Shown here one piece after another: positions 43,713-44,354 of a stretch of DNA of 64,000 bases (positions are counted from its first letter, which is position 1; each line of letters starts with the position of its first letter). The DNA comes from Chloroflexota bacterium. GTDB lineage: Bacteria > Chloroflexota > UBA11872 > VXNJ01. The notes below the pieces were generated by a model. That model saw nothing but the letters and a program-made list of their open reading frames with translations, was not told where the DNA came from and ran no database searches. Location of the stretch: NCBI GenBank assembly GCA_965203015.1, contig CBDBBM010000025.1:4551-68550 (forward strand), read 5' to 3'. The position numbers were made by a program, and so were the translations under genes.

Positions 43713-44165
43713 TCAGTCGTTCCCACCTGTTTCCAGGTAGGCTGGACTCTCTCTTAACTGACTGCGGTTCATCTGCGCGACGATCGCGCGGATTTCCGCC
43801 AGTCCTTCCTGCGTCAGATGCTCGTTCCTCTCCATCCGCAGCAGCGCTTTCCGGAATTTGATGAATTCCAGTCGCTTCTGCGTCTTGAGCGGATGTTTCA
43901 TGAAGAACGGAACGATGCGCTCTAGCAGGTGCTCTCGGTTCCTCACTCTATATGCCATTCGATCGCCGTGGTTCCTGCGAACCACTCCGCATCCGAAGTA
44001 GCGTTTGAGGCCGTGGAGGACCTTTACGTCGCGGGCATGCTGGTCGACGCTGAATTCTGCGAGCACCTGGTATCCGGTGCTCATCTCCTCGTGCCGGCGG
44101 ATGCCGATACGGAAGCAGCCTTCACCGTCCACAAAACCCACGATCCAAGCCGCATTCAGGTTCAT
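43713..44165 (-). CDS. Intron-encoded LAGLIDADG homing endonuclease (single-motif, I-CreI-like, 150 aa)
   Basis: LAGLIDADG motif WIVGFVDGEGCF, typical size and Lys/Arg-rich DNA-binding saddle. The ORF lies entirely within the 23S intron. Its TGA stop uses the last two intron nt plus the first exon nt. Confidence 0.85.
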   Translation of the reverse strand: MNLNAAWIVGFVDGEGCFRIGIRRHEEMSTGYQVLAEFSVDQHARDVKVLHGLKRYFGCGVVRRNHGDRMAYRVRNREHLLERIVPFFMKHPLKTQKRLEFIKFRKALLRMERNEHLTQEGLAEIRAIVAQMNRSQLRESPAYLETGGND

Positions 44166-44354
44166 GTGTCAGTTCCGAACGTTTGGTCTCTGAGGGTTCC
44201 CGGTTGGCACCGGGTCTTCCCTGCGGATTACCCCCATGTCCGCCGGATTTTTACTGCCGGGTCCCGATTCAATTGTCGAGACCGGCGAGTACCGGACGGT
44301 TTTCGAGGGCTTTCCCGCATATAGTTCGGTTTTTCTAAGGCTAGCGGTTTTCCA
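43714..44354 (-). mobile_element. Group I intron inserted in 23S rRNA after U1931 (E. coli numbering)
   Basis: Exon sequence ...ACGGTCCTAAGGT | intron | AGCGAAATTCCTTGTCGGGTAAG... The 5' exon ends in U and the intron ends in G. An internal guide sequence CGCU-AGCCUUAG near the intron 5' end can pair with both the 5' exon (CUAAGGU, forming P1 with a U.G at the splice site) and the 3' exon (AGCG, forming P10). Confidence 0.85.

Follow-up and report, generated by a model that had tools for sequence, protein, structure and literature searches.

What interrupts the 23S ribosomal RNA (rRNA) gene of this Chloroflexota bacterium, and how could a continuous rRNA still be made from it? The window (the whole stretch of DNA analysed here, 64,000 nt of contig CBDBBM010000025.1) contains a 23S gene with a 641-nt insert after position 1931 in Escherichia coli numbering. 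By its site, its predicted fold and its coding content the insert is a group I intron of the type known at this position of the large-subunit (LSU) rRNA, termed L1931 introns, and it encodes a LAGLIDADG homing endonuclease. The probability that it is a functional L1931 group I intron carrying an active homing-endonuclease gene is put at roughly 90%. The gene and its parts are as follows:

42747–46468, minus strand: 23S rRNA gene, 3722 nt with the intron (Rfam RF02541, 2609 bits, model positions 1–2925; aligned to E. coli rrlH)
44355–46468, minus strand: 5' exon of the 23S rRNA gene
42747–43713, minus strand: 3' exon of the 23S rRNA gene
43714–44354, minus strand: group I intron, 641 nt, without P2, with an extended P5 and an open reading frame (ORF) in L8 (Rfam RF00028; rrlH alignment; covariation)

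The RF02541 match is to a full-length bacterial LSU rRNA, and its alignment jumps a 644-nt block at the insertion. A global alignment with rrlH of E. coli MG1655 places the borders more exactly, with a 641-nt insert (44354–43714 in the window) directly after U1931. Read from the sequence, the 5' exon ends in ...CCUAAGGU (...ACGGUCCUAAGGU in a longer read), the insert ends in ...GACUG (...GGGAACGACUG), and the 3' exon starts with AGCGAAAUUCC (resuming as AGCGAAAUUCCUUGUCGGG in the longer read). Nucleotides 9–20 of the insert read CGCU-A-GCCUUAG and can pair with both exons: GCCUUAG forms 7 bp with exon CUAAGGU, the pair at the splice site being U.G, and CGCU forms a 4-bp P10 with AGCG of the 3' exon. 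All of this agrees with the initial annotation of this DNA, which had described a 641-nt insertion at 43714–44354 following U1931, with a P1 containing a U.G pair, a P10 and a terminal G; the E. coli numbering, now verified against rrlH, gives the same junction. The Rfam scan and the rrlH alignment both indicate that there is only one intron in this 23S gene.

Does the insert have the structure of a ribozyme? The Rfam model Intron_gpI (RF00028) matches 43723–44384 over its full length (model positions 1–253), scoring 61.9 bits where the gathering score is 50 (window-wide E 2.8e-13), and the P3–P9 core is recognised, as the initial annotation had anticipated for such a covariance model. A secondary structure was drawn by hand from the Rfam alignment and the sequence, and was compared with related introns. 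For this comparison one genome per species was scanned for the encoded protein, and the best 80 loci were examined, out of at least 561 genomes with a relative. Both exon junctions could be located at 77 loci, and 57 introns were aligned. The helices are listed below, with cells of the 57-intron alignment as the unit for pairing percentages:

44355–44361, minus strand: P1 5' strand CUAAGGU, the 7 nt that end the 5' exon; U1931 (44355) makes the U.G pair (sequence, helix map; paired in 100% of 57)
44335–44341, minus strand: internal guide sequence GCCUUAG, the P1 3' strand (sequence, helix map, covariation count)
44343–44346, minus strand: P10 guide CGCU; partner AGCG at 43710–43713, where the 3' exon begins (79.5% of family cells paired)
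44324–44329, minus strand: P3 5' strand CCGAAC; 3' strand GUUCGG at 44175–44180 (two-sided changes at 5 of 6 pairs; 99.7% of cells paired)
44222–44319, minus strand: P4-P5-P5a-P5b domain (helix map; also in the minimum-energy fold)
44314–44319 with 44222–44227, minus strand: P4 (invariant)
44305–44309 with 44231–44235, minus strand: P5 (covaries; P5 and P5a have 96–99% of cells paired)
44292–44299 with 44240–44246, minus strand: P5a (covaries)
44276–44286 with 44256–44267, minus strand: P5b (helix map)
44219–44221 with 44194–44196, minus strand: P6 (one pair changes from G-C to A-U in 12 of 57)
44210–44214 with 44199–44203, minus strand: P6a (covariation at 4 of 4 well-aligned pairs)
44185–44190, minus strand: P7 5' strand G-(bulged A)-GACC; 3' strand AGUCC at 43744–43748 (98.2% of cells paired; 3 of 5 pairs invariant)
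44168–44173, minus strand: P8 5' strand ACUGAC; 3' strand GUCAGU at 43757–43762; loop filled by the ORF (covariation at 6 of 6 pairs)
43722–43741, minus strand: P9 hairpin of 8 bp with a GAAA tetraloop at 43730–43733 (two-sided changes at 7 of 8 pairs)
43715–43716 with 43742–43743, minus strand: P9.0, CU with AG (100% of cells paired; 14 and 19 double changes)
43714, minus strand: terminal G, or omega-G (77 of 77 introns end in G)

P7 and P3 form a pseudoknot, and the bulged A of P7 adjoins the G-C pairs of the guanosine-binding site. Only 5 nt separate P1 from P3, and P2 is absent. An unguided minimum-energy fold of the first 201 nt gives P1 and P3–P6a (z = −5.8).

The related introns support this structure. 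At all 77 loci the intron lies at the identical L1931 junction, with a length of 616–841 nt and a final G, and the P1 guide with its U.G pair is kept in all 57 aligned introns. Standard pairs fill 92.4% of cells in the hand-drawn structure, compared to 26–49% when the 3' partners are slid by 1–3 columns. Both partners change at 46 of the 75 pairs, and the observed values were reached by none of 500 shuffles. The covarying helices are P3, P5, P5a, P6, P6a, P8, P9 and P9.0. P1, P4 and P7 are nearly invariant, so covariation offers no test there and these helices speak neither for nor against the structure. Covariation across so many hosts implies that the RNA is under selection for the group I fold, and this is the strongest argument short of experiment for an active ribozyme. 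The Rfam score, the L1931 site and the covarying core all agree with the earlier identification of the insert as a group I intron.

Some further features were seen in the same set of loci. Two covariations that are not Watson-Crick join 44181–44184, just 3' of the P7 5' strand, to J8/7 (43749–43755): the first is U:A in 43 sequences and A:G in 12, and the second is N:A in 43 sequences and G:G in 13, with one exception. These are probably tertiary or non-canonical core pairs. The intron of an Anaerolineae metagenome-assembled genome (MAG), at ca. 841 nt, is ca. 200 nt longer than the family and was left out of the alignment. A second, tandem intron was considered for some related loci on account of a second ACGGTCCTAAGGT-like match ca. 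570 nt upstream, and was rejected: the match is an ordinary similar segment of the 23S gene (..GGTTAGTCGGGTCCTAAGG..) with no splice junction.

What does the intron encode? The reading frame and its signature motif are:

43713–44165, minus strand: homing-endonuclease ORF, 150 aa plus stop (Pfam PF00961, LAGLIDADG_1, 7.5e-26; match to PDB 5gkk; ratio of non-synonymous to synonymous substitution rates, dN/dS)
44118–44144, minus strand: LAGLIDADG motif IVGFVDGEG, residues 8–16 (translation; G10-G16 invariant in 31 homologues)

The LAGLIDADG_1 match covers residues 8–107 as one domain, and solved homing endonucleases are matched in PDB with E values down to 1e-53. The best PDB matches are I-TnaI (5gkk, sequence E 2.7e-49), which is presumably, from the naming convention, encoded by the L1931 intron of Thermotoga neapolitana, and the I-SmaMI/I-OnuI family. 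An AlphaFold model built from 31 homologues (predicted local distance difference test, pLDDT, 88.7) has an alpha-beta-beta-alpha-beta-beta-alpha core followed by helices, with residues 138–150 disordered. The top match of a fold search was again 5GKK, 'homing endonuclease I-TnaI', with 56% identity over 133 residues, a root-mean-square deviation of 1.1 A and a template modelling (TM) score of 0.85–0.87. E15 and Q42 are invariant in the 31 homologues; in a BLASTP alignment with what we take to be the I-CreI sequence, they align with the catalytic D20 and with Q47. The initial annotation's 150-aa ORF with a single LAGLIDADG motif is thus seconded by the Pfam and PDB matches from the database search that it had proposed.

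The gene also appears to be maintained. The dN/dS ratio is 0.13 against the sister genome, the Chloroflexota MAG chromosome OZ242304.1, with a median of 0.17 over 105 pairs. No stop or gapped codon occurs in codons 3–134 in 56 of the 57 ORFs, although this count is biased upward because the loci were found through the protein. The low dN/dS and the intact ORFs indicate that the gene is kept as a protein by purifying selection. Single-motif LAGLIDADG proteins act as homodimers, and members of the class cut an intron-less target with 4-nt 3' overhangs, so a homodimer is expected here as well. The endonuclease adds another natural variant to a scaffold that, in its relatives I-OnuI and I-SmaMI, is used in genome engineering.

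The reading frame and the ribozyme share sequence. The ATG lies 2 nt past the 5' strand of P8, and the last ca. 16 codons overlap the 3' strands of P8 and P7, J8/7, P9.0 and P9. The UGA stop is split by the 3' splice site, with UG in the intron and A in the exon, meaning that the excised intron would have no in-frame stop and that the stop exists in the unspliced precursor alone. The frame ends inside the intron in 74 of 79 family members, mostly at a UAA or UAG in the J8/7 segment AAGAUAAAGUCC. A UGA that spans the splice site was found in four introns: those of this window, of OZ242304.1, of a Gemmatimonadota MAG (JAJEEM010000001.1) and of one other locus (L030). In the first three of these J8/7 reads AAGAGAGAGUCC and the usual stop is lost. 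The extra C-terminal residues correspond to the disordered tail of the model, and are therefore read as a by-product of the loss of the internal stop.

Taken together, these features suggest the following course of events. The intron would be transcribed within the pre-23S rRNA, from the single 23S-5S operon seen in the window, and would fold into the P3–P9 core. The guide GCCUUAG would form P1 with the end of the 5' exon, placing the U1931.G pair at the cleavage site, and an external guanosine held in P7 would attack the 5' splice site. P9.0 and P10 would then set the terminal G and the 3' exon, and the exons would be joined to give a continuous 23S rRNA around helices 70/71, with the predicted junction ...CCUAAGGU-AGCGAAAUU.... 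At the DNA level a homodimer of the 150-aa protein would cut intron-less 23S genes at 1931, with ...CCTAAGGT/AGCGAAATTCC... as the predicted cleavage target, and repair would copy the intron in (homing). The protein may also help the ribozyme to fold, as a maturase, by analogy with I-TnaI of Thermotoga neapolitana. We infer from conservation and homology that the intron splices in vivo and that the protein cleaves DNA, and likewise any maturase role. If the intron does splice, the organism presumably depends on the ribozyme for working ribosomes. With the intron in the gene, the DNA does not give the 23S rRNA sequence directly, and the 641 nt must be dropped for annotation, rRNA phylogeny and primer design.

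Several points weigh against a functional intron with an active endonuclease gene, in addition to the upward bias in the count of intact ORFs. The case for splicing in this organism is drawn from sequence. The stop codon of the endonuclease gene is present only in the unspliced precursor, and no recognisable Shine-Dalgarno sequence was read before the ATG. A search of 43500–44600 for an internal promoter of the endonuclease gene found no sigma-70-like site; terminator-like matches in the interval are few and weak, and all but one are on the opposite strand. Within the ribozyme, the terminal P7 pair is mismatched (C.A) in this window, as it is in 5 of the 57 sequences.

The mismatch in P7 could also be taken to favour an alternative: that the intron is retained or poorly spliced and forms a 641-nt expansion at helices H70/H71, or that the rRNA matures by another route. 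Position 1931 belongs to domain IV, part of the ribosomal subunit interface, and a large insert there should be harmful. Every core helix is intact, with compensatory changes across the 57 genomes that extend even to the 2-bp P9.0, and the invariance of P1, P4 and the guanosine-binding part of P7 points to selection on catalysis rather than to a neutral insert. A member of the family may nevertheless persist in rRNA, judging from the title of a paper on the Simkania L1931 intron, 'An unspliced group I intron in 23S rRNA...' (cited in PMC11270868). On balance, retention in this organism seems unlikely.

It is far less probable still that the insert is an intervening sequence (IVS) of the RNase III type, excised without ligation so that the 23S rRNA is left fragmented. 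The ends of the insert form P1, P9.0 and P10, not one long terminal stem, and the insert fits the group I model and has a homing-endonuclease gene within it; these are not the features of an IVS. Classical IVS sites are in helices 25 and 45. Site 1931 differs from these sites, which lie in the 5' part of the gene (23IS2, 23IS4; PMC11270868). As a class, IVSs are common in bacterial 23S rRNA, and 18.5% of non-CPR (candidate phyla radiation) RefSeq 23S genes have insertions (PMC11270868).

If the insert is a functional L1931 intron, in what kind of organism does it reside, and how did it come to be there? After removal of the intron, the 23S sequence is 99.4% identical to that of OZ242304.1 (a 2.44-Mb chromosome), and the two genomes are collinear over 5.9 kb. 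Identity between them is graded: 99.2–99.8% in the 23S exons, 99.1% in the 5S gene, 87.8% in the intron (641 nt in both, without insertions or deletions) and 83.5% in the DNA beyond the 5S gene. This gradient indicates that the intron has been vertically inherited within this Chloroflexota lineage since the common ancestor of the two genomes. The actinobacterial host suggested by the initial annotation is excluded by the near-identical exons and collinear flanks of this Chloroflexota MAG. The G+C content of the intron (56.8%) is close to that of the host rRNA (56.5%); that of the host MAG is 67%. An assembly artefact, in which a foreign intron-bearing 23S segment was joined into the contig, is highly improbable even though rRNA operons are the classic place for chimeras and the only records of the exact protein are in ENA metagenome assemblies, since the 641-nt intron recurs at this site in an independent chromosome with a sensible gradient of identity, and the G+C content of the intron matches the host rRNA.

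How widespread is the element, and does it still move? In the protein database there are 3361 relatives of the endonuclease at E <= 1e-10, many of them 65–98% identical, and a relative is encoded in at least 561 of 185,579 species-representative genomes, from more than 15 phyla. The best 80 loci come from Chloroflexota, Acidobacteriota, Gemmatimonadota, Chlamydiota, Alpha- and Gammaproteobacteria, Burkholderiales, Myxococcota, Acidimicrobiia, Trueperaceae, Planctomycetota, Nitrospirota, Latescibacterota, Bacteroidota, Omnitrophota, Cyanobacteria, Desulfobacterota and CPR groups. Several homologues have C-termini that run into 3' exon sequence (..NRAKFLVG, ..SEIPCRVSSDPHER), which confirms that they occupy the same site. 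The initial annotation had called such introns rare, which fits the older literature but not these counts; the rRNA introns of non-CPR bacteria were likewise described as limited to a few species (Tsurumaki et al. 2024, PMC11270868). The survey extends the known picture of L1931 introns and does not change it. With relatives in hundreds of species of many phyla, at the same nucleotide in all that were examined, it provides a context for the persistence of homing endonucleases.

The G+C content of the introns ranges from 38.7 to 63.8% and tracks that of the host rRNA (r = 0.83), which fits long residence in each host. The Gemmatimonadota MAG named above (JAJEEM010000001.1, 2812–3452) shows a different pattern. 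Its 641-nt intron is closest to the Chloroflexota introns, at 81% identity, while its exons are closest to those of other Gemmatimonadota (84%) and only 76% identical to this Chloroflexota 23S. That the intron is more similar than the exons points to transfer between phyla, and at least one such transfer is likely. The same L1931 intron was also seen on a 3.3-kb contig labelled Candidatus Woesearchaeota archaeon (JBBIPM010000104.1), the exons of which are 81.7% identical to this bacterial 23S (BLAST, 843 nt), about as similar as those of many bacterial loci; this may be a misbinned bacterial contig.

A broader reading can be offered only tentatively. The L1931 intron, with the endonuclease gene inside it, may be a mobile element that has long been resident across the bacteria and still passes from one phylum to another, instead of being brought in now and then from organelles, and in the sub-lineage that has lost the J8/7 stop, termination of the protein may be tied to the precursor RNA. 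We regard this combination as possible but doubtful. If it is true, the RNA would be subject to competition between translation and splicing.

The surroundings of the gene are those of an ordinary chromosomal region. An inosine-uridine nucleoside hydrolase gene is directly upstream of the 23S gene, and downstream there are genes for a PMT-family glycosyltransferase and a hydrolase. In the unlinked rRNA operon (42557–47650) the 23S and 5S genes are adjacent and no 16S gene lies upstream, and the Rfam scan found no 16S gene anywhere in the 64-kb window. Besides the intron, the 23S gene is ca. 160 nt longer than that of E. coli (regions 45739–45838 and 46092–46166). There are ca. 91 extra nt at E. 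coli positions 540–549, in the helix 25 region, where the surrounding 126 nt form a long hairpin (z = −3.2), and ca. 72 extra nt near position 290 with no special fold. Other RNA genes in the window are:

42557–42672, minus strand: 5S rRNA gene, downstream of the 23S gene in the same operon (Rfam RF00001, 88 bits)
57567–57831: bacterial large signal recognition particle (SRP) RNA (159.9 bits)
31672–31745: tRNA gene
38955–39027: tRNA gene

How does this intron compare with the L1931 introns that have been described before? Bacterial L1931 introns with single-motif LAGLIDADG genes were reported in Simkania, Synechococcus and Thermotoga by Haugen et al. 2007 (PMC1995217), whose Table 1 bears out the initial annotation's placement of the Thermotoga and Simkania introns at L1931:

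Simkania negevensis L1931: intron 654 nt, protein 143 aa (PMC1995217)
Synechococcus lividus C1 L1931: intron 675 nt, protein 162 aa (PMC1995217)
Synechococcus sp. C9 L1931: intron 666 nt, protein 167 aa (PMC1995217)
Three Thermotoga species L1931: intron 698–700 nt, protein 162 aa (PMC1995217)

These introns were described as IC1-like, with a complex P5, no P2 and ORFs that reach into the core (PMC1995217). Archaeal LSU/1931 introns have been typed as IB4 (Nawrocki et al. 2018, PMC6125680), and the label IB4, where it is used here, is borrowed from that typing by site. LAGLIDADG_1 genes are found at 1931 throughout the CPR (PMC11270868).

The intron of Thermotoga neapolitana has the same L1931 site and a single-motif LAGLIDADG protein, and the two proteins are 56% identical. 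The Thermotoga intron is 700 nt long with a 162-aa protein, compared to 641 nt and 150 aa here, and the two introns are likened by protein and by description. Thermotoga neapolitana is a hyperthermophile of the Thermotogae, while the host here is a Chloroflexota MAG with 67% G+C. For Thermotoga, both self-splicing and maturase-like activity have been published according to PMC11270868 and Hausner et al. 2014 (PMC3984707), the latter describing a T. neapolitana protein with maturase-like activity, whereas here both properties are predictions.

Simkania negevensis has an intron at the same site with the same type of endonuclease gene, and three chlamydial MAGs have clear homologues of the window intron at the same junction. 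The chlamydial introns differ in G+C content (ca. 39–42%, compared to 57% here), and the Simkania intron is reported as unspliced in the title cited in PMC11270868. P2 is missing from the introns of Synechococcus C1 and C9, as it is from the one described here; in both cases P5 is complex, P7 is classical, and the ORF, starting in a peripheral loop, continues into the core (PMC1995217). A Thermosynechococcus MAG in the present survey has a homologous intron of 669 nt. The Synechococcus hosts have up to three rRNA introns (L1917, L1931 and L2593), while there is a single intron in the 23S gene here.

More distant hosts share the site as well. The archaeal (IB4) and CPR introns at LSU/1931 have endonucleases of the same Pfam family (PMC6125680, PMC11270868), and two CPR loci fall within the present alignment family. 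Unlike the intron in this window, many of the archaeal examples, at 250–460 nt, are too short for an ORF of ca. 150 aa (PMC6125680). CPR genomes differ in often having many insertions per rRNA gene. Organellar copies are AT-rich, whereas this intron matches high-G+C bacterial rRNA, the two being likened by description. The I-CpaI intron is an example of the organellar L1931 introns. Those of green-algal chloroplasts and mitochondria and of Acanthamoeba mitochondria form one clade with the bacterial introns and endonucleases (PMC1995217).

The intron in this window lies at site 1931/1932, lacks P2, has an extended P5 and an ORF that reaches into the core, and encodes a homologous endonuclease. 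By these sequence traits it is a member of the L1931 lineage, whether that lineage is called IB4-type or 'IC1-like without P2'. Judged in the same way, it differs from the known members in three respects only: the host, the lengths of intron and protein (641 nt and 150 aa), and where the stop codon lies.

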